From NCBI GenBank assembly GCA_951406725.2, contig OX597822.1, positions 94,178,001 through 94,242,000 of the forward strand: 64,000 nucleotides of DNA. The letters run 5' to 3'. Under the pieces are notes generated by a model. It had not been told where the DNA came from, ran no database searches, and saw only the letters and a list, made by a program, of their open reading frames with translations. Below are positions 5,417 to 37,723 of this stretch, piece by piece. Position 1 is the first letter of the stretch; each line of letters opens with the position of its first letter. The position numbers and the translations under genes were made by a program. Source of the DNA: Octopus vulgaris (Eukaryota).

Positions 5417-5490
5417 AGCCCTAACACTAACCCTAAAACCCTAACCCTAACCCTAAAACCCTAACCTTAACCCTAAAACCGTAACCGTAA
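5417..5490. repeat. Short degenerate telomere-like (CCCTAA/CCCTAAAA) tract inside a putative MITE
   Basis: ccctaacactaaccctaaaaccctaaccctaaccctaaaaccctaaccttaaccctaaaaccgtaaccgtaa. Confidence 0.7.
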
Positions 5491-6811
5491 GTACAGATAT
5501 GTTTTGAAATTTTTGTCCGAATCCTGATGTCCGTATTTTTCCGCATATTTAGAAAAGAAAAAATTCTTAAAAACAAATTTTACAAAGATTTTTGGAAATT
5601 TTTTTCAGAATCATAATCTCCGTATTTTCCCGCATATTTTGAGAGAAAAAAATTCTGAAAAAAGTTTAAAATGAAAGAAATGGGGGTGGGGTTGGGGTAA
5701 TTTAGAAATGTCGATTTTTGTCAATTTTTTTTGCAGATTTGTATTTCCCGTAGCTGAAAATGGGGGCTTGTATCGAAAAAAAAAAGTAAAAAAAATAGGG
5801 TGGGTTGTTTTTTTTTTGGAGGGGGGGGGCCCAAATAGTTAATTGCCCAAATGGTTAATTACTAAATTTAGTATGAGCCTTCAAATCACTTGAACTTCTG
5901 AGATATGATAATTAGTTATCACTAATATAAGTTATTTCTAAATACTGTTTCTTTATTCCTAAATTACTAAATCTTAATCTTCCTTCACAAGTCGGGCGCA
6001 TCCAAGAATCCATTACAAATGGTCTCAAAATGCCTCTCAAAATGTTGAATTTAAAAGTTTTCGTAGGGAGAAGGGAAATGTAGGAGTTTACTGCACTCCA
6101 CTGATACCCACCCCGTTATCCTATGCCATTCGAATGGGTACGATAATATCAATTTTCACCTCACTCTTTAAAAAGTTGTATCGGATAACCTACCAACCTA
6201 TTTTTTTACTACCCACAAGGGGCTAAACACAGAGAGGACAAACAAGGACAGACAAACGGATTAAGTCGATTATATCGACTCCAGTGCGTAACTGCTACTT
6301 ATTTAATCAACCCTGAAAGGATGAAAGGCAAAGTTGACCTCGGCGGAATTTGAACTCAGAACGTAACGGCAGACGAAATACTGCTAAGCATTTCGCCCGG
6401 CGTGCTAACGTTTCTGCCAGCTCGCTAACTACCTACCTACCTACATACATGCAAACATACATATGTATGTATGTGTGAGTGAGTGAGAGAGAGGGAGAGA
6501 GAGAGAGAGAGAGAAGCTGCGTAGGCATTGCGACATGGTCATGAAGCTTATTTCCCAACCATGTGGTTTCAGGTTCATTCCCATTGCGCAGCACCTTGAG
6601 CAAATGCTTACTATTGTAGCCTTGGGCGGACCGAAGCTTTTCGGTTGTCAGGAAGGTGCATATGTGTGTCATTCCACCACCACTTGACAACCGGTGTTGG
6701 TTTGTTTAGTCCCCGTAACTTCGGGATTCAGCACAAAGAGTTCGATAGAATAAGTACAGGACTTAAAAAACAAAAATACTGGGATCAATATGTTCAAATA
6801 AATCCTTCAAG

Positions 6812-17577: not shown

Positions 17578-18526
17578 TTTCAAATTTTGGCACAAGGCCA
17601 GCAATTTCAGGGGAGTTGAATAAGTCGGTTACATCAACCCCAGTGCTCAACTGCTACTTATTTAACTGAAGTGATGAAAGGCAAAGTTGATTTTGGCAGG
17701 ATTTGAACTCAGAATGTCAAGATGGATGAAACGTTAAGCATTTTACCCAGTGTTGACACAAGGGGCTAAACATAAAGGGGACAAACAAGGACAGACAAAC
17801 GGATTAAGTCGATAATATCGACCTCAGTGCATAATTGGTACTTATTTAATCGACCCCGAAAGGATGGAAGGCAAAGTCGACCTTGGTGGAATTTGAACTC
17901 AGAACGTAGCGGCAGACAAAATACCTATTTCTTTACTACCCTCAAGGGGCTAAACATAGAGGGGACGAACAAGGACAGACAAACGGATTAAGTCGATAAT
18001 ATCGACCTCAGTGCGTAACTGGTAATTATTTAATCGACCCCGAAAGGATGAAAGGCAAAGTCAATCTTGGTGGAATTTGAACTCAGAACGTAGCGGCAGA
18101 TGAAATACCTATTTCTTTACTACCAACAAGGGGCTAAACACAGAGGGGACGAACAAGGACAGACAAATGGATTAAGTCGATTCCATCGACCCCAGTGCGT
18201 AACTGGTACTTAATTCATCGACCCTGAAAGGATGAAAGGCAAAGTCGACCTTGGTGGAATTTGAACTCAGAACGTAGCGGCAGACGAAATACCTATTTCT
18301 TTACTACCCTCAAGGGGCTAAACACAGAGGGGACGAACAAGGACAGACAAACGGATTAAGTTGATTATATCGACTCCAGTGCGTAACTGGTACTTATTTA
18401 ATCGACCCCGAAAGGATGAAAGGCAAAGTCGACCTCAGCGGAATCTGAACTCAGAATGTAGCGGCAGACGAAATACTGCTAAGCATTTTGCCTGGTGTGC
18501 TAACGATTCTGCCAGCTCGCTGCCTT
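17578..18526 (-). mobile_element. Chain of SINE-A segments (one full head, three ~184-bp headless repeats, one segment with a different tail) inserted in a piggyBac MITE
   Basis: Repeated junction aatac|ctatttctttactacc at ~17925, ~18109, ~18293; whole chain flanked by ATTTGACAGA(C/G)TAATATGA (17559-17577 / 18527-18545). Confidence 0.8.
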
Positions 18527-18985: not shown

Positions 18986-21900
18986 ATGTGATTGTTTATT
19001 TTTAGAATTACATTGTAGGACAGGTTTCAGGTACCAAATGTGTGATTGTTTATTTTTAGAATTACATTGGATTGTTATTTATCATTGTAGGACAGGTGTG
19101 TACGTGGACAGGTGCAGGTACCAAATGTGTAATTGTTTATTTTTAGAATTACATTGTAGGACAGGTGTCAGGTACCAAATGTGTGATTGTTTATTTTTAG
19201 AATTACATTGTAGGACAGGTGTCAGGTACCAAATGTGTGATTGTTTATTTTTAGAATTACATTGTAGGACAGGTGTCAGGTACCAAATGTGTGATTGTTT
19301 ATGTTTAGAATTACATTGTAGGACAGGTGTCAGGTACCAAATGTGTGATTGTTTATGTTTAGAAGGTACCAAATGGTATTGTTTATGTTTAGAAGTACAT
19401 TGTAGGACAGGTGTCAGGTACCAAATGTGTGATTGTTTATGTTTAGAATTACATTGTAGGACAGGTGTCAGGTACCAAATGTGTGATTGTTTATGTTTAG
19501 AATTACATTGTAGGACAGGTGTCAGGTACCAAATGTGTGATTGTTTATGTTTAGAATTACATTGTAGGACAGGTGTCATGTATTGTTATTTTAGAAGGTA
19601 CCAAATGTGTGATTGTTTATTTTGAATTACATTGTAGGACATTACATTCAGAATTACATTGTAGGACAGGTGTCAGGTACCAAATGTGTGATTGTTTATT
19701 TTCAGAATTACATTGTAGGACAGGTGTCAGGTACCAAATGTGTGATTGTTTATTTTCAGAATTACATTGTAGGACAGGTGTCAGGTACCAAATGTGTGAT
19801 TGTTTATTTTTAGAATTACATTGTAGGACAGGTGTCAGGTACCAAATGTGTGATTGTTTATTTTTAGAATTACATTGTAGGACAGGTGTCAGGTACCAAA
19901 TGTGTGATTGTTTATTTTCAGAATTACATTGTAGAACAGGTGTCAGGTACCAAATGTGTGATTGTTTATTTTCAGAATTACATTGTAGGACAGGTGTCAG
20001 GTACCAAATGTGTGATTGTTTATTTTTATAATTACATTGTAGGACAGGTGTCAGGTACCAAATGTGTGATTGTTTATTTTCAGAATTACATTGTAGAACA
20101 GGTGTCAGGTACCAAATGTGTGATTGTTTATTTTCAGAATTACATTGTAGAACAGGTGTCAGGTACCAAATGTGTGATTGTTTATTTTTAGAATTACATT
20201 GTAGGACAGGTGTCAGGTACCAAATGTGTAATTGTTTATTTTTAGAATTACATTGTAGGACAGGTGTCAGGTACCAAATGTGTGATTGTTTATTTTTATA
20301 ATTACATTGTAGGACAGATGTCAGGTACCAAATGTGTGATTGTTTATGTTTAGAATTACATTGTAGGACAGGTGTCAGGTACCAAATGTGTGATTGTTTA
20401 TTTTATTACATTGTAGAAGTACATTGTTTATTTTAGAATTACATTGGACAGGTGTCAGGTACCAAATGTGTGATTGTTTATGTTTAGAATTACATTGTAG
20501 GACAGGTGTCAGGTACCAAATGTGTGATTGTTTATTTTTAGAATTACATTGTAGGACAGGTGTCAGGTACCAATGTGTGATTGTTTATTTTGAAAATTGT
20601 GATTGTTTATGTTTAGAATTACATTGTAGGACAGGTGTCGGGTACCAAATGTGTGATTGTTTATTTTTAGAATTACATTGTAGGACAGGTGTCAGGTACC
20701 AAATGTGTGATTGTTTATGTTTAGAATTACATTGTAGGACAGGTGTCGGGTACCAAATGTGTGATTGTTTATTTTTATAATTACATTGTAGGACAGATGT
20801 CAGGTACCAAATGTGTGATTGTTTATGTTTAGAATTACATTGTAGGACAGGTGTCAGGTACCAAATGTGTGATTGTTTATTTTTAGAATTACATTGTAGG
20901 ACAGGTGTCAGGTACCAAATGTGTGATTGTTTATGTTTAGAATTACATTGTAGGACAGGTGTCGGGTACCAAATGTGTGATTGTTTATTTTTAGAATTAC
21001 ATTGTAGGACAGGTGTCAGGTACCAAATGTGTAATTGTTTATGTTTAGAATTACATTGTAGGACAGGTGTCGGGTACCAAATGTGTGATTGTTTATTTTT
21101 AGAATTACATTGTAGGACAGGTGTCAGGTACCAAATGTGTGATTGTTTATGTTTAGAATTACATTGTAGGACAGGTGTCGGGTACCAAATGTGTGATTGT
21201 TTATTTTCAGAATTACATTGTAGGACAGGTGTCAGGTACCAAATGTGTGATTGTTTATTTTTAGAATTACATTGTAGGACAGGTGTCGGGTACCAAATGT
21301 GTGATTGTTTATGTTTAGAATTACATTGTAGGACAGGTGTCGGGTACCAAATGTGTGATTGTTTATTTTTAGAATTACATTGTAGGACAGGTGTCAGGTA
21401 CCAAATGTGTGATTGTTTATGTTTAGAATTACATTGTAGGACAGGTGTCGGGTACCAAATGTGTGATTGTTTATTTTAGAATTACATTGTAGGACAGGTG
21501 TCAGGTACCAAATGTGTGATTGTTTATGTTTAGAATTACATTGTAGGACAGGTGTCGGGTACCAAATGTGTGATTGTTTATTTTTAGAATTACATTGTAG
21601 GACAGGTGTCAGGTACCAAATGTGTGATTGTTTATGTTTAGAATTACATTGTAGGACAGGTGTCGGGTACCAAATGTGTGATTGTTTATTTTCAGAATTA
21701 CATTGTAGGACAGGTGTCGGGTACCAAATGTGTGATTGTTTATTTTCAGAATTACATTGTAGGACAGGTGTCGGGTACCAAATGTGTGATTGTTTATTTT
21801 TAGAATTACATTGTAGGACAGGTGTCGGGTACCAAATGTGTGATTGTTTATTTTCAGAATTACATTGTAGGACAGGTGTCAGGTACCAAATGTGTGATTG

Positions 21901-22389
21901 TTTATGTTTAGAAGTACATTGTAGGACAGGTGTCAGGTACCAAATGTGTGATTGTTTATGTTTAGAATTACATTGTAGGACAGGTGTCAGGTACCAAATG
22001 TGTGATTGTTTATTTTCAGAATTACATTGTAGGACAGGTGTCAGGTACCAAATGTGTGATTGTTTATTTTTAGAATTACATTGTAGGACAGGTGTCAGGT
22101 ACCAAATGTGTGATTGTTTATTTTCAGAATTACATTGTAGGACAGGTGTCAGGTACCAAATGTGTGATTGTTTATGTTTAGAATTACATTGTAGGACAGG
22201 TGTCAGGTACCAAATGTGTGATTGTTTATTTTCAGAATTACATTGTAGGACAGGTGTCAGGTACCAAATGTGTGATTGTTTATTTTTAGAATTATATTGT
22301 AGGACAGGTGTCAGGTACCAAATGTGTGATTGTTTATTTTTAGAATTACATTGTAGGACAGGTGTCAGGTACCAAATGTGTGATTGTTT
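18986..22389. repeat. 54-bp tandem satellite, about 60-63 units
   Basis: Unit atgtgtgattgtttatttttagaattacattgtaggacaggtgtcaggtaccaa (18 codons, MCDCLFLELHCRTGVRYQ in the ORF track); one GGTACC per unit. Confidence 0.97.
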
Positions 22390-28380: not shown

Positions 28381-29149
28381 GAGAGTGGCTCCTGTACTGG
28401 TAATACACATCGCTTCATATAAAATTTACTCTTCTCATATTGTATGAACACCTTCCGTATTAACGTAGCAATAGGTAACGTATATAGACTTACAACAAAC
28501 TTTTCTTCACGATCATGCTACATTGGTCTGTGTATCAAAGTAGTTTACTGAGGTGTGGTTACTATTGTAACAAAATAGACAATGGTGGCTACTCTTTTAA
28601 TGAAAAAGTGGGTAAGCAAGAATGAAGGAGAGAAAACTAGATGAAATTTGGAATATGGAAATGGGCCATTGAGAGTTCATGTCACACCTAAATGTAGATT
28701 CCTTAGCTCTTGTCATCCATTTATTATTATCTCAATAACTTCATCCATGAAATCATTTTCCAATTCCCTCTTTTTTTTTTTATACCCTATAATGTGTTCT
28801 TGGTTTTCTTACATTTTCTACAATGTGTAAAAGCAAAAGCTCAATGTCTTACCTAAGACACCTCATGGCACATCATCCAAGACCATTTATTCTTCAGAGA
28901 TATCTATGTTTACCCCATGCTTGACATATACTGTGAGGACATTTTCTAAATACATATGTGTGATCCACTATAAATATATATACATACTAGCATTATGACC
29001 TGTTGTTGCCGGGTCATAGTGCTAGTGCATGTATATATGTGTATATATATGTGTACATATTACATGTACATCTATATATATACATCTACACATAAAATAC
29101 AAAATACAAAGTTATATCTTGATATCGCTAGTGATAACAATACTCAAAA

Positions 29150-29471
29150 TATATTACAGACTGGAATTGTAAGCCCATCTCTTGCAATTTCGATCAATTG
29201 CATCTTGTCCTCCCTCTTGTATAGAAGTGTGGCTACAATCCAGCCTACCTCTACTTCTGGGGGGACATTTAAAATTTTTTTCCGGGACGTTCTACATCCC
29301 AGTTATAAAGGTGAAAATAAAATATTTCCACTTTGCAAGTTCGAGTCGAGTACTCCCTTGCACGCTCCGTTGACTCGAACCTTGCTTCTATTGTGGCGAA
29401 TTTACCACCTCTGGTTAGATATCTTTCATAGTCGCACCAAGACACTTTTCAATGGTGCTTTCCTCCAGGTG
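29150..29471 (-). pseudogene. Decayed, diverged ORF1 paralog (host of the array), 3' part; the 5' part resumes at ~36574-36635
   Basis: Minus-strand translation across frameshifts HLEESTIEKCLGATMKD / RYLTRGGKFATIEARFESTERAREYSTR / KILNVPPEVEVGWIVATLL aligns with array ORF1 VEIAEIEKCLGDIMD / TYVSRGKKFGTVEVRCATEEIAASLATT / KIPNIPPEVKTEWLATAIL; right flank EKTIVYKVYNVEKK aligns with ENKTVTYRTQDKSTKK. Confidence 0.8.
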
Positions 29472-29713
29472 ATTTTATTACTACCCACAAGGGGCGAACA
29501 TAGAGGGGACAATACAATCGGGGAACTTAAAATAAGAAAGCGAAATGACAAGAAGGGAAAAACTAAAAATAAAAATGACAAATGAAAGAATATTTACAAT
29601 GAGATGCAAATGCCCACTCGATCCCCGGAATCGAGAGGTTACATTTTCGTCACATATAGTTCACAATTTTTTTTTTCTTTTTTCTCTTCTTTCTTCTCTC
29701 TCCTCTCACAATC

Positions 29714-31112
29714 TCACACGTATTCCATAATACTTTTCAAGTCTCTAAAGTCAATCACTGAGCCCTCAGGCAGCCGCTCTTTCACTCGAACACCCGTGTA
29801 AAAAATTACACTCTCTCCAGCTGCTCTGAGGAACTCAGCGACTCTTTCTTCGGGGATCAGAGCAGTCTCCTGCCACTGATCAGTCATCCTGTTGACCCAC
29901 ACATGTCCCTCCATACTACATGTCAATTCCTTCATTTCGGGGCTGAAATGGAAGGTTATTAACTTGTAGTAATCTTGTTTCCGTCCTACGTTTTCTCTCG
30001 TTTTTCTTTTCGGGCTTACTTCTTCCTTGTTCTCCTCTCTTTGTTTCTCTCTTTCTCTCTTTTTGCCTTCTTTTCTTTCTTCTTCCTTCTCTTGTCTTTT
30101 TGGTTCTTTGTCTGTTCTCTCTTTCTCTCGTGTTTTATGTTCCTTTTCTTTTTCTTTTGTGTGCCGTCTTTTCTTTTCGTTTGATTCTGATCTCTCTCTT
30201 GTTTTTTTCCTGTTGTTTCTTTTTCCTTTTTCTTTTCCTGACTCTGTTTTGGTTCTATTTCTTTCTTTTCTTTTATTTCTTTTTCCTTCGTTGACTTATT
30301 ATTTCCTTTCTCTTGTTGTTTTGTCTCCTTTTCTATGTTTTCTTTTTCATTTACCGTATTCTTCTTTCCTTCAATTTCCTTCTCATACTCCGCCATGAAT
30401 TCATATAACGGGCACTCTTTTTTAATGTGCCCCCTTGTCCCGCACAAGTAGCAGTTTGGCTTTCTTCCCTCTACAATTACACTGAGGGTTTTCTCGTCTT
30501 CGATTTCTATTCTATAGGGGAACCTTTCAATGTCCTCTTTTGTGGCCATCAAACACAGTTCTACCCCATATCCTTTCCAATTTACTGCATTGGACTCCTT
30601 AAAGGATTCCACCTCCACTTCCTCTTCTGCTGCTCCTAGAATAGCTGTTGCCAGCCATTCTGTTTTTACTTCTGGGGGTATATTCGGGATTTTAACCCGG
30701 ACCCCTCTTCTTCCCTTGTATGAGGGCCACATTATAAATGATTCCGCTCTTAGAACAGTGGTAGCCAGTGAGGCTGCAATTTCTTCCGTTGCACATCTCA
30801 CCTCTACCGTACCAAATTTTTTCCCTCTACTCACGTAGGTCGATTTATCCATTATGTCTCCCAGACATTTTTCGATCTCTGCTATCTCCACTCTTGCCAG
30901 TTTCTTTGTACTTTTGTCCTGGGTTCTATACGTTACAGTTTTGTTTTCCTTGTCCTCCTTTGCTTTCGCGGGGGGATTAGCTTCACGCTATCACCCTCCC
31001 TTTTGAATAGCTTTTCATATTCTTTGATTTTGCTTTTCTCAAAGAAAACATCCTTCACGATTATTGCTGAATCATTATTATTCTTTCCCGTGACCCCCGC
31101 GTAAGTCGCCAT
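29714..31112 (-). CDS. ORF1-like RRM/CCHC zinc-knuckle protein, unit 1 (one-T frameshift ~30155; G6 shift 30970-30975)
   Basis: CYLCGTRGHIKKEC knuckle; ORF pieces 30016-30891 and 29714-29935 join if one T is restored; upstream ATG at 31112. Confidence 0.7.
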
Positions 31113-31492
31113 GACTAGAGGGTCAATTCACCTTCTTCTGAAGGTTTCCAAACGTGGAGGCAAACGCCTCGCGCGATATTAATCACTTTACACAACAAAA
31201 TTTCACTGTCTAATCACAGATAACAACACGCAAATAGATTTCCTCCAGGTGATTTTATTACTACCCACAAGGGGCGAACATAGAGGGGACAATACAATCG
31301 GGGAACTTAAAATAAGAAAGCGAAATGACAAGAAGGGAAAAAATAAAAATAAAAATGACAAATGAAAGAATATTTACAATGAGATGCAAATGCCCACTCG
31401 ATCCCCGGAATCGAGAGGTTACATTTTCGTCACATATAGTTCACAATTTTTTTCTCTTTTTTCTCTTCTTTCTTCTCTCTCCTCTCACAATC

Positions 31493-32892
31493 TCACACGT
31501 ATTCCATAATACTTTTCAAGTCTCTAAAGTCAATCACTGAGCCCTCAGGCAGCCGCTCTTTCACTCGAACACCCGTGTAAAAAATTACACTCTCTCCAGC
31601 TGCTCTGAGGAACTCAGCGACTCTTTCTTCGGGGATCAGAGCAGTCTCCTGCCACTGATCAGTCATCCTGTTGACCCACACATGTCCCTCCATACTACAT
31701 GTCAATTCCTTCATTTCGGGGCTGAAATGGAAGGTTATTAACTTGTAGTAATCTTGTTTCCGTCCTACGTTTTCTCTCGTTTTTCTTTTCGGGCTTACTT
31801 CTTCCTTGTTCTCCTCTCTTTGTTTCTCTCTTTCTCTCTTTTTGCCTTCTTTTCTTTCTTCTTCCTTCTCTTGTCTTTTTGGTTCTTTGTCTGTTCTCTC
31901 TTTCTCTCGTGTTTTATGTTCCTTTTCTTTTTCTTTTTGTGTGCCGTCTTTTCTTTTCGTTTGGTTCTGTTCTCTCTCTTGTTTTTTTCCTGTTGTTTCT
32001 TTTTCCTTTTTCTTTTCCTGACTCTGTTTTGGTTCTATTTCTTTCTTTTCTTTTATTTCTTTTTCCTTCGTTGACTTATTATTTCCTTTCTCTTGTTGTT
32101 TTGTCTCCTTTTCTATGTTTTCTTTTTCATTTACCGTATTCTTCTTTTCTTCATTTTCCTTCTCATACTCCGCCATGAATTCATATAACGGGCACTCTTT
32201 TTTAATGTGCCCCCTTGTCCCGCACAAGTAGCAGTTTGGCTTTCTTCCCTCTACAATTACACTGAGGGTTTTCTCGTCTTCGATTTCTATTCTATAGGGG
32301 AACCTTTCAATGTCCTCTTTTGTGGCCATCAAACACAGTTCTACCCCATATCCTCTCCAATTTACTGCATTGGACTCCTTAAAGGATTCCACCTCCACTT
32401 CCTCTTCTGCTGCTCCTAGAATAGCTGTTGCCAGCCATTCTGTTTTTACTTCTGGGGGTATATTCGGGATTTTAACCCGGACCCCTCTTCTTCCCTTGTA
32501 TGAGGGCCACATTATAAATGATTCCGCTCTTAGAACAGTGGTAGCCAGTGAGGCTGCAATTTCTTCCGTTGCACATCTCACCTCCACCGTACCAAATTTT
32601 TTTCCTCTACTCACGTAGGTCGATTTATCCATTATGTCTCCCAGACATTTTTCGATCTCTGCTATCTCCACTCTTGCCAGTTTCTTTGTACTTTTGTCCT
32701 GGGTTCTATACGTTACAGTTTTGTTTTCCTTGTCCTCCTTTGCTTTCGCGGGGGGATTAGCTTCACGCTATCACCCTCCCTTTTGAATAGCTTTTCATAT
32801 TCTTTGATTTTACTTTTCTCAAAGAAAACATCCTTCACGATTATTGCCGAATCATTATTATTCTTTCCCGTGACCCCCGCGTAAGTCGCCAT
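31493..32892 (-). CDS. ORF1-like (Tx1/L1 gag-like, ZCCHC3-like) nucleic-acid-binding protein, unit 2
   Basis: 392-aa open frame 31493-32671 (GTG start in the track): RRM-like region (VKIPNIPPEV; FPYRIEI...VIVEG), CX2CX4HX4C knuckle, Lys/Glu-rich linker, ~85-aa C-terminal domain; likely true ATG at 32892 (gtcATGG) lies one base out of frame at the G6 run 32750-32755. Confidence 0.8.
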
Positions 32893-33274
32893 GACTAGAG
32901 GGTCAATTCACCTTCTTCTGAAGGTTTCCAAACGTGGAGGCAAACGCCTCGCGCGATATTAATCACTTTACACAACAAAATTTCACTGTCTAATCACAGA
33001 TAACAACACGCAAATAGATTTCGGACAGGTGATTTTATTACTACCCACAAGGGGCGAACATAGAGGGGACAATACAATCGGGGAACTTAAAATAAGAAAG
33101 CGAAATGACAAGAAGGGAAAAAATAAAAATAAAAATGACAAATGAAAGAATATTTACAATGAGATGCAAATGCCCACTCGATCCCCGGAATCGAGAGGTT
33201 ACATTTTCGTCACATATAGTTCACAATTTTTTTTTTTCTTTTTTCTCTTCTTTCTTCTCTCTCCTCTCACAATC

Positions 33275-34659
33275 TCACACGTATTCCATAATACTTTTCA
33301 AGTCTCTAAAGTCAATCACTGAGCCCTCAGGCAGCCGCTCTTTCACTCGAACACCCGTGTAAAAAATTACACTCTCTCCAGCTGCTCTGAGGAACTCAGC
33401 GACTCTTTCTTCGGGGATCAGAGCAGTCTCCTGCCACTGATCAGTCATCCTGTTGACCCACACATGTCCCTCCATACTACATGTCAATTCCTTCATTTCG
33501 GGGCTGAAATGGAAGGTTATTAACTTGTAGTAATCTTGTTTCCGTCCTACGTTTTCTCTCGTTTTTCTTTTCGGGCTTACTTCTTCCTTGTTCTCCTCTC
33601 TTTGTTTCTCTCTTTCTCTCTTTTTGCCTTCTTTTCTTTCTTCTTCCTTCTCTTGTCTTTTTGGTTCTTTCTCTCGTGTTTTATGTTCCTTTTCTTTTTC
33701 TTTTTGTGTGCCGTCTTTTCTTTTCGTTTGGTTCTGTTCTCTCTCTTGTTTTTTTCCTGTTGTTTCTTTTTCCTTTTTCTTTTCCTGACTCTGTTTTGGT
33801 TCTATTTCTTTCTTTTCTTTTATTTCTTTTTCCTTCGTTGACTTATTATTTCCTTTCTCTTGTTGTTTTGTCTCCTTTTCTATGTTTTCTTTTTCATTTA
33901 CCGTATTCTTCTTTTCTTCAGTTTCCTTCTCATACTCCGCCATGAATTCATATAACGGGCACTCTTTTTTAATGTGCCCCCTTGTCCCGCACAAGTAGCA
34001 GTTTGGCTTTCTTCCCTCTACAATTACACTGAGGGTTTTCTCGTCTTCGATTTCTATTCTATATGGGAACCTTTCAATGTCCTCTTTTGTGGCCATCAAA
34101 CACAGTTCTACCCCATATCCTCTCCAATTTACTGCATTGGACTCCTTAAAGGATTCCACCTCCACTTCCTCTTCTGCTGCTCCTAGAATAGCTGTTGCCA
34201 GCCATTCTGTTTTTACTTCTGGGGGTATATTCGGGATTTTAACCCGGACCCCTCTTCTTCCCTTGTATGAGGGCCACATTATAAATGATTCCGCTCTTAG
34301 AACAGTGGTAGCCAGTGAGGCTGCAATTTCTTCCGTTGCACATCTCACCTCCACCGTACCAAATTTTTTTCCTCTACTCACGTAGGTCGATTTATCCATT
34401 ATGTCTCCCAGACATTTTTCGATCTCTGCTATCTCCACTCTTGCCAGTTTCTTTGTACTTTTGTCCTGGGTTCTATACGTTACAGTTTTGTTTTCCTTGT
34501 CCTCCTTTGCTTTCGCGGGGGGATTAGCTTCACGCTATCACCCTCCCTTTTGAATAGCTTTTCATATTCTTTGATTTTACTTTTCTCAAAGAAAACATCC
34601 TTCACGATTATTGCCGAATCATTATTATTCTTTCCCGTGACCCCCGCGTAAGTCGCCAT
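33275..34659 (-). CDS. ORF1-like protein, unit 3 (in-frame 15-bp deletion in the K/E linker)
   Basis: 387-aa open frame 33275-34438; upstream ATG at 34659; G6 run 34517-34522. Confidence 0.8.
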
Positions 34660-35040
34660 GACTAGAGGGTCAATTCACCTTCTTCTGAAGGTTTCCAAAC
34701 GTGGAGGCAAATGCCTCGCGCGATATTAATCACTTTACACAACAAAATTTCAACGTCTAATCACAGATAACAACACGCAAATAGATTTCCGACACGTGAT
34801 TTTATTACTACCCACAAGGGGCGAACATAGAGGGGACAATACAATCGGGGAACTTAAAATAAGAAAGCGAAATGACAAGAAGGGAAAAAATAAAAATAAA
34901 AATGACAAATGAAAGAATATTTACAATGAGATGCAAATGCCCACTCGATCCCCGGAATCGAGAGGTTACATTTTCGTCACATATAGTTCACAATTTTTTT
35001 CCTCTTTTTTCTCTTCTTTCTTCTCTCTCCTCTCACAATC

Positions 35041-36439
35041 TCACACGTATTCCATAATACTTTTCAAGTCTCTAAAGTCAATCACTGAGCCCTCAGGCAG
35101 CCGCTCTTTCACTCGAACACCCGTGTAAAAAATTACACTCTCTCCAGCTGCTCTGAGGAACTCAGCGACTCTTTCTTCGGGGATCAGAGCAGTCTCCTGC
35201 CACTGATCAGTCATCCTGTTGACCCACACATGTCCCTCCATACTACATGTCAATTCCTTCATTTCGGGGCTGAAATGGAAGGTTATTAACTTGTAGTAAT
35301 CTTGTTTCCGTCCTACGTTTTCTCTCGTTTTTCTTTTCGGGCTTACTTCTTCCTTGTTCTCCTCTCTTTGTTTCTCTCTTTCTCTCTTTTTGCCTTCTTT
35401 TCTTTCTTCTTCCTTCTCTTGTCTTTTTGGTTCTTTGTCTGTTCTCTCTTTCTCTCGTGTTTTATGTTCCTTTTCTTTTTCTTTTTGTGTGCCGTCTTTT
35501 CTTTCGTTTGGTTCTGTTCTCTCTCTTGTTTTTTTCCTGTTGTTTCTTTTTCCTTTTTCTTTTCCTGACTCTGTTTTGGTTCTATTTCTTTCTTTTCTTT
35601 TATTTCTTTTTCCTTCGTTGACTTATTATTTCCTTTCTCTTGTTGTTTTGTCTCCTTTTCTATGTTTTCTTTTTCATTTACCGTATTCTTCTTTTCTTCA
35701 TTTTCCTTCTCATACTCCGCCATGAATTCATATAACGGGCACTCTTTTTTAATGTGCCCCCTTGTCCCGCACAAGTAGCAGTTTGGCTTTCTTCCCTCTA
35801 CAATTACACTGAGGGTTTTCTCGTCTTCGATTTCTATTCTATAGGGGAACCTTTCAATGTCCTCTTTTGTGGCCATCAAACACAGTTCTACCCCATATCC
35901 TCTCCAATTTACTGCATTGGACTCCTTAAAGGATTCCACCTCCACTTCCTCTTCTGCTGCTCCTAGAATAGCTGTTGCCAGCCATTCTGTTTTTACTTCT
36001 GGGGGTATATTCGGGATTTTAACCCGGACCCCTCTTCTTCCCTTGTATGAGGGCCACATTATAAATGATTCCGCTCTTAGAACAGTGGTAGCCAGTGAGG
36101 CTGCAATTTCTTCCGTTGCACATCTCACCTCCACCGTACCAAATTTTTTTCCTCTACTCACGTAGGTCGATTTATCCATTATGTCTCCCAGACATTTTTC
36201 GATCTCTGCTATCTCCACTCTTGCCAGTTTCTTTGTACTTTTGTCCTGGGTTCTATACGTTACAGTTTTGTTTTCCTTGTCCTCCTTTGCTTTCGCGGGG
36301 GGATTAGCTTCACGCTATCACCCTCCCTTTTGAATAGCTTTTCATATTCTTTGATTTTACTTTTCTCAAAGAAAACATCCTTCACGATTATTGCCGAATC
36401 ATTATTATTCTTTCCCGTGACCCCCGCGTAAGTCGCCAT
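35041..36439 (-). CDS. ORF1-like protein, unit 4 (one-T frameshift ~35502)
   Basis: ORF pieces 35343-36218 and 35041-35262; upstream ATG at 36439; G6 run 36297-36302. Confidence 0.7.
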
Positions 36440-36879
36440 GACTAGAGGGTCAATTCACCTTCTTCTGAAGGTTTCCAAACGTGGAGGCAAACGCCTCGCG
36501 CGATATTAATCACTTTACACAACAAAATTTCAACGTCTAATCACAGATAACAACACGTATAGCTTGGAGCCATGTGTTCAAATCTTCTTTTTTCTCTACA
36601 TTGTATACTTTATAGACAATAGTCTTTTCTTTAATTTAATTTTTTATTATCCATCTGGACTATTCCATTTCTGCACGCTAATTTTATTTTTAATTTATTC
36701 CCATTCATGTAAAACCACTTATCCAAGTTCAAGTCATTGATGCAATTTTATACCAATTGCTATTTTTACTTTTGTTATGTTACGATTATATTATACTTTA
36801 GTTTGATTTTAATTATTACTTACTACATATAATTCAATTGTTATTATTATTTTTATTGTTAAAGTGAAAGTATCTGACG

Positions 36880-37116
36880 TAAAATAGAGAAATGTTTTTG
36901 TTTCACTTTTAAAATGTAATACTGAAATAGTGGAGAAGATATGATATTGCTATGGGCTCGCCCTAGCAAGAAGTTGAACATTTTTTTGCCCATGAAACTA
37001 CATGGAGTCTAAGTAAGGCATGTGTAAAATTTGAATGAAATTGGTTGTGTAGTTCTCAAGTTTTAGGGAAACACACAGACAGACAGATACACATTCTCAG
37101 TTTTATATATATAGAG
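36880..37116 (+). mobile_element. Possible Helitron/Helentron-derived non-autonomous element; similar piece ~25320-25630
   Basis: ...aaatttgaatgaaattggttgtgtagttctc...acacacagacagacag...ttttatatatataga, resembling DINE/HINE-type ends. Confidence 0.4.
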
Positions 37117-37723
37117 ATTTCCTTTTTGTATTTGGTTTACAAGATTCTTTATGTGAATTTGAGTGTTGAAGCATAATTTATTTTGTCTGAGTAGAGTCAT
37201 TGTCTTTTAGTGCCTTAAAAATTAACACACTCACTAGTTCAATTTCCACTCATTTACTTATCTATTTTTTCTAAAATTACCATTGCGTCTTGCAACCTTT
37301 TCAGCAACTATTGAAAAGGTTGCGAGATGAAAAGAAAATTTTAAAAAAAATAAGTAAATGAATGGAAATCAAACCAGTTAAGTAATAAGGCACTAAAAGA
37401 GAATGTCTCCCCAGATACATCATCATCATTATCATCCTCATTATCGTTTAATGTCCATTTTCCATGCTGGCATGGGTTGGACAGTTCGACTTTGGTCTGG
37501 GAAGCCAGGAGGCTGCACCAGGCCCCAATCTGATCTGGCAGTGTTTCTACAGCTGGATACCCTTCCTAACACCAACTACTCAGAGTGTAGTGGGTGCTTT
37601 TTACATACCACTGGCACAGGGGCCAGAGGAGCTAGCATTGATCACGATTGGATGGTGCTTTTTACGTGCCACCGGCACGGAAGCCAGTCAAAGCAGCACT
37701 ATATTTATATATATATATATATA

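Follow-up and report, generated by a model that had tools for sequence, protein, structure and literature searches.

ORF1-only retroelements in tandem at a single site of a Helitron-like repeat of Octopus vulgaris, with junctions that likely combine local and donor-carried letters

Tandem arrays of a site-specific LINE have been described for R1 of Drosophila, which inserts into the duplication at the 5' end of a previous copy and leaves a 14-bp duplication between copies, and some transcripts of which are described as including letters of the upstream target, by which annealing takes place at the 5' junction (Stage and Eickbush, 2009; PMC2718515). The octopus system presented here resembles R1 in its APE-type site-specific LINE and in forming arrays through a 5' duplication. 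However, R1 targets 28S rDNA and, in the part of that study drawn on here, varies at the end of the duplication (PMC2718515), whereas the octopus junctions vary inside it, and unlike in R1 this variation appears to be heritable and to pass between an autonomous LINE and ORF1-only families. Insertion into non-autonomous DNA transposons is known for Tx1L in Tx1D of Xenopus and for Tx1-Mar and SINEU in Mariner-N4_AMi, and Tx1-type partners are reported to nest beside each other and to carry heritable 5' extensions, one of which resembles the target transposon (Kojima, 2015; PMC4494074; PMC1950540). The octopus system likewise combines an L1/Tx1-group LINE and non-autonomous partners within a non-autonomous DNA transposon, but its target is Helitron-like, its partners are 1.6-1.9 kb long and code for ORF1, and they form ordered chains of up to 22 units of the family termed A here. 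HAL1 (half-L1) is described as a non-autonomous LINE derivative that codes for ORF1 alone (PMC5753468). Unit A shares with HAL1 the presence of ORF1 only, a 3' end common to the autonomous partner and truncated copies with duplications; it differs in being site-specific and tandem, in an ORF1 that is 33-36% identical to that of its present partner, in the lack of a poly(A) tail at insertion and in the frameshifts of most copies. Unit A works like HAL1 but is not HAL1 proper, which is defined by mammalian L1 descent: the closest named relative of the partner's reverse transcriptase (RT) is from Argonauta hians, at 63%. HeT-A elements of Drosophila telomeres are also ORF1-only and build up polar arrays, 3' end against 5' end, with short carried 5' sequences; the octopus site, unlike that of HeT-A, is internal and endonuclease-cut, with a duplication, and is found at many dispersed loci, while the elements belong to the L1/Tx1 group rather than to Jockey. 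Recently active L1-Tx1 and Helitron families have been reported from an octopus, in a text whose examined part makes no mention of targeting (PMC13282606). Each ingredient of the system has a precedent, in R1 arrays, in Tx1 targeting of transposons and in HAL1; a Helitron target, the exchange of alleles inside the duplication and the combination of these ingredients were not found in our searches of open-access text.

The window analysed is the whole 64,000-nucleotide (64-kb) stretch of contig OX597822.1 (assembly GCA_951406725.2, positions 94,178,001 to 94,242,000 of the forward strand), in which four units of about 1,780 bp, with their sense on the minus strand, follow one another in head-to-tail order at a single precise position within a small transposon (Table 1). 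The junctions reported in an initial annotation of this sequence are exactly placed (TTTCCTCCAGGTG at 29459 and 31239, TTTCGGACAGGTG at 33019 and TTTCCGACACGTG at 34786), and its observation that they differ more than the unit bodies also holds, the six-letter cores differing by 2-3 letters and the bodies by 0.11-0.74% in pairwise comparison. The motif proposed for them, TTTC-NNN-CASGTG, indeed has only four matches on both strands of the window but is too narrow, with AT, GT and CT found at the 'AS' position too, and the variable zone extends beyond the three or four letters to which it had been confined, taking in about 10 letters to the left of TTTC. The two letters of the core that lie far from the element, termed distal here, read AG, AG, AG, AC and AT along the window, changing in the last two of the four junctions, a point that counts against the hybrid model favoured below.

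Table 1. Features of the array and its target in the window.
Feature	Position	Strand	Remarks
Target repeat, 3' half	28987..29470	-	Non-autonomous Helitron-like repeat of ~1,030 bp, judged by its ends; degenerate hairpin and CTAG at 28990-28987, host T next on the minus strand; contiguous with the right half in at least 1,002 empty copies
Intact target TTTCCTCCAGGT	29459..29470	+	Every element starts after 29470; first nick presumably on the plus strand
Unit 1, ORF1-only, family A	29471..31238	-	Closest relative on C1 (0.23%); 0.63% within its own array
Junction 1	31239..31250	+	Core CTCCAG, an exact copy of the local target core
Unit 2	31251..33018	-	Start codon ATG at 32892; frameshift within the G run 32750-32755; 3' ~50 nt common to the LINE
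Unit 2, downstream frame	32767-31493	-	CCHC knuckle and K/E-rich tail
Junction 2	33019..33030	+	Core GGACAG: GGAC allele (5 loci, A and LINE junctions combined) with local AG
Unit 3	33031..34785	-	15-bp in-frame deletion in the low-complexity tail
Junction 3	34786..34797	+	Core CGACAC; allele at 6 loci
Unit 4	34798..36559	-	Likely the last added, given the polarity deduced for the arrays
Terminal 16-nt junction TAGCTTGGAGCCATGT	36560..36575	+	Recurring allele, common to LINE and A copies
Target repeat, 5' half, short form	36576..37117	-	Begins TC at 37117 after host A

Neither flank of the array is unique host DNA. The 480 bp to its left and the 540 bp to its right are the halves of one dispersed repeat of about 1 kb, and these are found joined, with the core CTCCAG or CTCCAT, in the empty copies of Table 1 (control 0). 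Judged by its termini the repeat is probably a non-autonomous Helitron-like element: the window copy has a 5' TC and a 3' hairpin followed by CTAG, lies between A and T and has no terminal duplication, and among empty copies the left end was matched in 12 of 30 and the right end in 25 of 30. The target is cut at a single base, TTTCCTCCA[G/T]GT^GTTCAAAT, and it is at this same base that the 3' ends of the LINE (79 sites), of A (10 sites) and of B-type elements (34 sites, of which nine were checked, all family B) are located. The 123 intact target-side junctions read CTCCA[G/T] or single-letter variants of it. The 13-bp duplication of host sequence noticed earlier around unit 1 is real as a duplication, but the duplicated site lies inside the dispersed repeat. 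Left target halves from 56 filled loci differ from one another by a minimum of 2.8% and a median of 7.4%, compared with 7.9% for empty copies, and filled and empty halves are interleaved in a star-like tree, while many of the LINEs are 99-100% alike. Since filled loci are no less divergent in their target halves than empty ones and interleave with them, the insertions are independent. The units are, as had been suspected, not only copies made by unequal crossover but retroelements inserted at a specific target. The target is of the short size form in 47 of 48 filled copies compared with 14 of 30 empty ones (P 1e-8). A long form (e.g. L079, L095, L100), with an insert of about 570 bp placed 75 bp to the right of the cut, was seen in 16 of the 30 empty and 0 of the 48 filled copies. 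Long donor-derived tracts in the right target half find no support, few derived letters being shared among 47 filled loci, and a seeming mismatch between the target halves is accounted for by a minor subfamily with 58 empty copies.

Unit A presents a single ORF with a CCHC knuckle (zf-CCHC only) and neither a reverse transcriptase nor an ORF2. Its 26-nt 3' end has 86 exact copies in the genome, chiefly in tandem arrays, and an unbroken frame of 465-469 aa from the first ATG is retained in five of 95 A copies and in none of the four window units. In the majority of the other arrays, a 5.25-kb LINE adjoins the units on the left. It has an ORF1 and an ORF2 of 1,131 aa, the latter containing APE endonuclease, RT and zf-RVT domains; of the 51 full copies, 20 have an ORF2 that is open over at least 1,100 aa. 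The ORF1 of unit A matches that of the LINE at 36% over 186 aa (E 2e-39), and the two elements have a 3' tail of 47 nt in common at 91%. The best PDB match of the LINE is L1 ORF2p (E 4e-65, against 5e-26 for R2), which places it closer to L1 than to R2, in line with its assignment to the L1/Tx1 group; the Tx1 part of the label is provisional and draws on architecture and target specificity. Among the 100 of its 132 3' ends that were listed, 81 lie at target-type sites (64 at a left half, 16 in tandem and one at a duplication). Further ORF1-only groups, B/C and D/E, occupy the same arrays, and the order LINE, D/E, A, B/C is kept in 51 of 55 class changes (three LINE rows were offset by the parser in the table of frames and family order). 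A founds 10 arrays at virgin targets, as against at least 19 full-length pairs in which it follows a LINE, while empty targets far outnumber LINE-filled ones. At least seven loci that end in B/C (e.g. L053, L074, L188, L189) have a common 5' joint at which about 13 nt of the right target half are gone. The longest chain, at C7:100.09-100.13 Mb (L044-L048), consists of a single LINE followed by 22 A units, and its junction alleles change stepwise along the array. An A copy at C2:150.14 Mb (L040 3037-4791) has A-to-G in sense as 52 of its 68 private changes, as expected from hyper-editing of RNA before insertion. A scan of 28900-33100 against Rfam for a self-cleaving ribozyme returned only microsatellite-driven miRNA matches below the gathering score.

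The core lies inside the target-site duplication, since two truncated on-target LINEs have on either side a 16-bp duplication, GTGCTTTCCTCCATGT, that includes it; four off-target truncated A copies have flanking duplications of about 13-18 bp. Diversity across loci is 0.44 for the core and 0.042 for the body (33 loci, one unit each), and 0.49 as against 0.007 among the 803 pairs of bodies less than 1% apart. Over the whole genome the core exceeds the body in diversity by a factor of 10-60, and its changes are mostly transversions, both of which we count against the model favoured below. Consensus error was checked as a source of these variants: the same alleles are found on other chromosomes, a contig of 198 nt from run X1 covers junction 2 without any alternative letter, and the GGAGCC allele is present in run X6. 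These recurrences, on several chromosomes and in independent runs, show that the junction variants are real. Seventeen of the 18 core alleles can be linked to the target allele and to one another in a network of single steps. The sharing of cores falls only weakly with body relatedness, from 22% in the closest pairs to 4% in distant ones, which likewise counts against the model favoured below. The '16 extra nt' at unit 4, which had been taken for a loose copy of the target, are a recurring allele, TAGCTTGGAGCCA[T/G]GT, present in nine copies at eight loci and always as the 5' junction of a LINE or an A; at C3:52.2 Mb it stands on both sides of an A behind a LINE, as expected if the duplication hands the allele between families. 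Another common 5' allele, ACGTGGGTAAATTTC (e.g. L035, L066), contains GTGGGTA, which is the 3' end of the element itself in inverted form, and is possibly a fold-back product. A reading of TTTCCTCCAG/GT as a splice acceptor was discarded, the AG not being kept, as was RNA editing behind the core variants, where A>G in sense makes up two of 39 changes. The pattern GATTTCVGACANGT, with 141 matches as against 148 in the control, is uninformative.

The initial annotation suggested that the junction spacers may come from other donor loci, a view not supported by the extensive local copying: of 96 A units, 58 have a 5' core identical to the one that borders them 3' (permutations gave a mean of 10 and a maximum of 23), and the same identity holds at 86 of 136 junctions of A and LINE together (10 junctions skipped), although junctions within one array are not independent and gene conversion can imitate local copying. 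The match also holds between neighbours of different lineages or families. Where the core changes, the distal two letters remain those of the local site in 30 of 42 events (expected 16; 0 of 10,000 permutations), while the near letters switch to alleles common to several chromosomes and families; GGAC, for example, precedes AG where the site has AG, and AT where it has AT. The first element at a target keeps AG in 10 of 10 cases and AT in 28 of 36. Changed cores are present at another locus too in 28 of 38 cases, and in this part each junction does behave as the carried tag that had been suggested. The joints are thus likely to be mixtures of local letters and letters brought from earlier donor copies and, as such, would record the order of chain growth, which agrees with the early proposal that the array records a history.

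The more diverged unit adjoins the left target half in 13 arrays as against two, with one tie (P=0.007), and a distal pair that departs from the target persists rightwards in 15 of 17 units unlike their neighbour (two rows offset in parsing). The arrays are likely to grow on the 5' side, that is, on the side of the right half, as Drosophila R1 arrays do. In these comparisons units were projected on one unit, and C15:65.7 Mb, a duplicate of C10:43.6 Mb, and truncated units were left out of the counts; loci were found through exact 3'-end patterns, so that older copies are under-sampled. Divergence from the majority is moreover an imperfect clock, given that the 'old-type' A array at C1:64.2 Mb has at its head a LINE that is very young, at 0.19% from its nearest relative. 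Some runs of identical units also expand locally.

The one cut position, the common 3' tail, the duplications, the local copying, the polarity of the hybrids, the shared alleles and the independent insertions, all of them shown by the sequences, support a reading that we consider probable: that a site-specific L1/Tx1-group LINE in a Helitron-like repeat has these units as its ORF1-only partners, and that each junction is a duplication of about 16 nt, in part from the local site and in part from the 5' end of the donor RNA. The ORF2 protein of the LINE would nick the target at GT^GTTCAAAT and copy the partner RNA in trans via the common tail, while a second nick about 16 nt away would provide an overhang. 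Full-length RNAs would begin inside the donor's own junction, so that the end of the cDNA could anneal to the overhang through TTTC. The mismatch in the core would then be settled either wholly in favour of the local site or as a hybrid, with donor letters next to the element and local ones at the distal end. Further insertion would take place at this fresh 5' junction joined to the right target half, and the chain would thereby grow on the right-half side. Carriage of junction letters by the donor is inferred from contigs, which weighs against the model. A bolder extension, which we offer tentatively, is that the junction of about 16 nt serves as a heritable, fast-mutating barcode exchanged by the LINE and its ORF1-only passengers via the target overhang. 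Passengers would prefer docking behind a LINE because the filled site matches the passenger 5' end over a greater length than does the virgin site, and would so build polar, ordered chains that log insertion history in the manner of a CRISPR array.

Whole read-through trains (B-A-A-LINE) could instead have been reverse transcribed in one piece, with all internal junctions derived from the donor and the LINE coming last through cis preference. The order of families described above would fit such trains, as would a trio of loci (C11:56.5, C14:73.4 and C19:0.06 Mb) in which the LINE and the next A are both within 0.2-0.4%. However, across 19 pairs the distances between LINEs are barely related to those between the neighbouring A units (Spearman 0.17, Mantel P 0.11), the neighbours of near-identical LINEs lie up to 5.8% apart, units 1 and 2 of the window have different nearest relatives, and B also inserts alone (34 sites), while the loss of about 13 nt of target at the B 5' joint means that B can come last without trains. 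This account is therefore unlikely, and the whole read-through multimers of the initial annotation would explain at most a minority of cases. Nor do we find it likely that there is no carriage from donors, the duplication being miscopied at each insertion and the same alleles arising repeatedly before spreading in arrays by unequal crossover or gene conversion. Runs of near-identical units at C7:100.1 Mb and C22:41.9 Mb, mosaic bodies and the weak tie of alleles to body lineage would be in keeping with miscopying, but alleles three steps from the target are reached in one step (CTCCAG to GGACAG in four parsed events, CTCCAT to CGACAC in three) and the 16-nt allele, at least four changes from the target, recurs at eight loci.

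The initial annotation had preferred a third reading, in which the spacers are remnants of other genomic target sites with a loose CACNTG consensus, captured at donor loci. The recurrence of alleles across chromosomes and the existence of some off-target insertions with duplications speak in its favour. Insertion is nevertheless at one site of one repeat family with at least 1,002 empty copies, all 14 of the variant cores joined to a right target half follow an element 5' end and none follows a left target half, the alleles xGAC, CTCG and AGCC occur in 0 of the 123 intact target-side junctions, and all nine copies of the unit 4 allele are element junctions. As the alleles form a single-step network from the target and none was seen in an empty target, they do not represent remnants of other target sites, and this reading, to which we attach a very low probability, is largely refuted in this assembly. 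That the filled Helitron moves as a composite, or that the junctions are coupling sequences of a tyrosine recombinase, is hardly credible, despite one duplicated pair of loci and a 6-bp variable core between conserved arms that resembles a recombination site, given that filled target halves are as diverged as empty ones and interleaved with them, that the partner encodes an APE endonuclease and an RT, that truncated copies carry target duplications and that the likeness of the duplicated pair runs into host flank beyond the repeat. The pair in question, C10:43.6 Mb (L051) and C15:65.7 Mb (L064), has a right-half deletion and outer host flank in common and represents a duplicated segment.

Under the favoured reading of local and donor-carried letters, the octopus arrays bear on the priming of the second strand by LINEs, which is still hard to see. 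More than 100 natural junctions have distinguishable donor and target alleles within the duplication, making the crossover point readable letter by letter, and the system offers a young and precise LINE, a harmless landing site in a thousand copies and several families of ORF1-only passengers.

The 3' tail of the elements (TTA.T.CCCACAAGGGGC) is shared by a very abundant short repeat, which forms four 184-bp tandem copies at 17759-18476 and is dispersed in the window at 6206, 7135 and 57909 and, on the minus strand, at 2412, 3320, 25042 and 39143; depth rises several hundred-fold over the common tail. This repeat is likely to be a SINE that uses the same LINE group and has no target preference. 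A 54-bp minisatellite of about 60 copies extends over 19106-22389, and its unit starts with GGACAGGTG, the nine letters of junction 2, a match that is probably due to chance because the junction 2 allele occurs on several chromosomes. A short interstitial run of (CCCTAA)n is present at 5419-5490 of the window.
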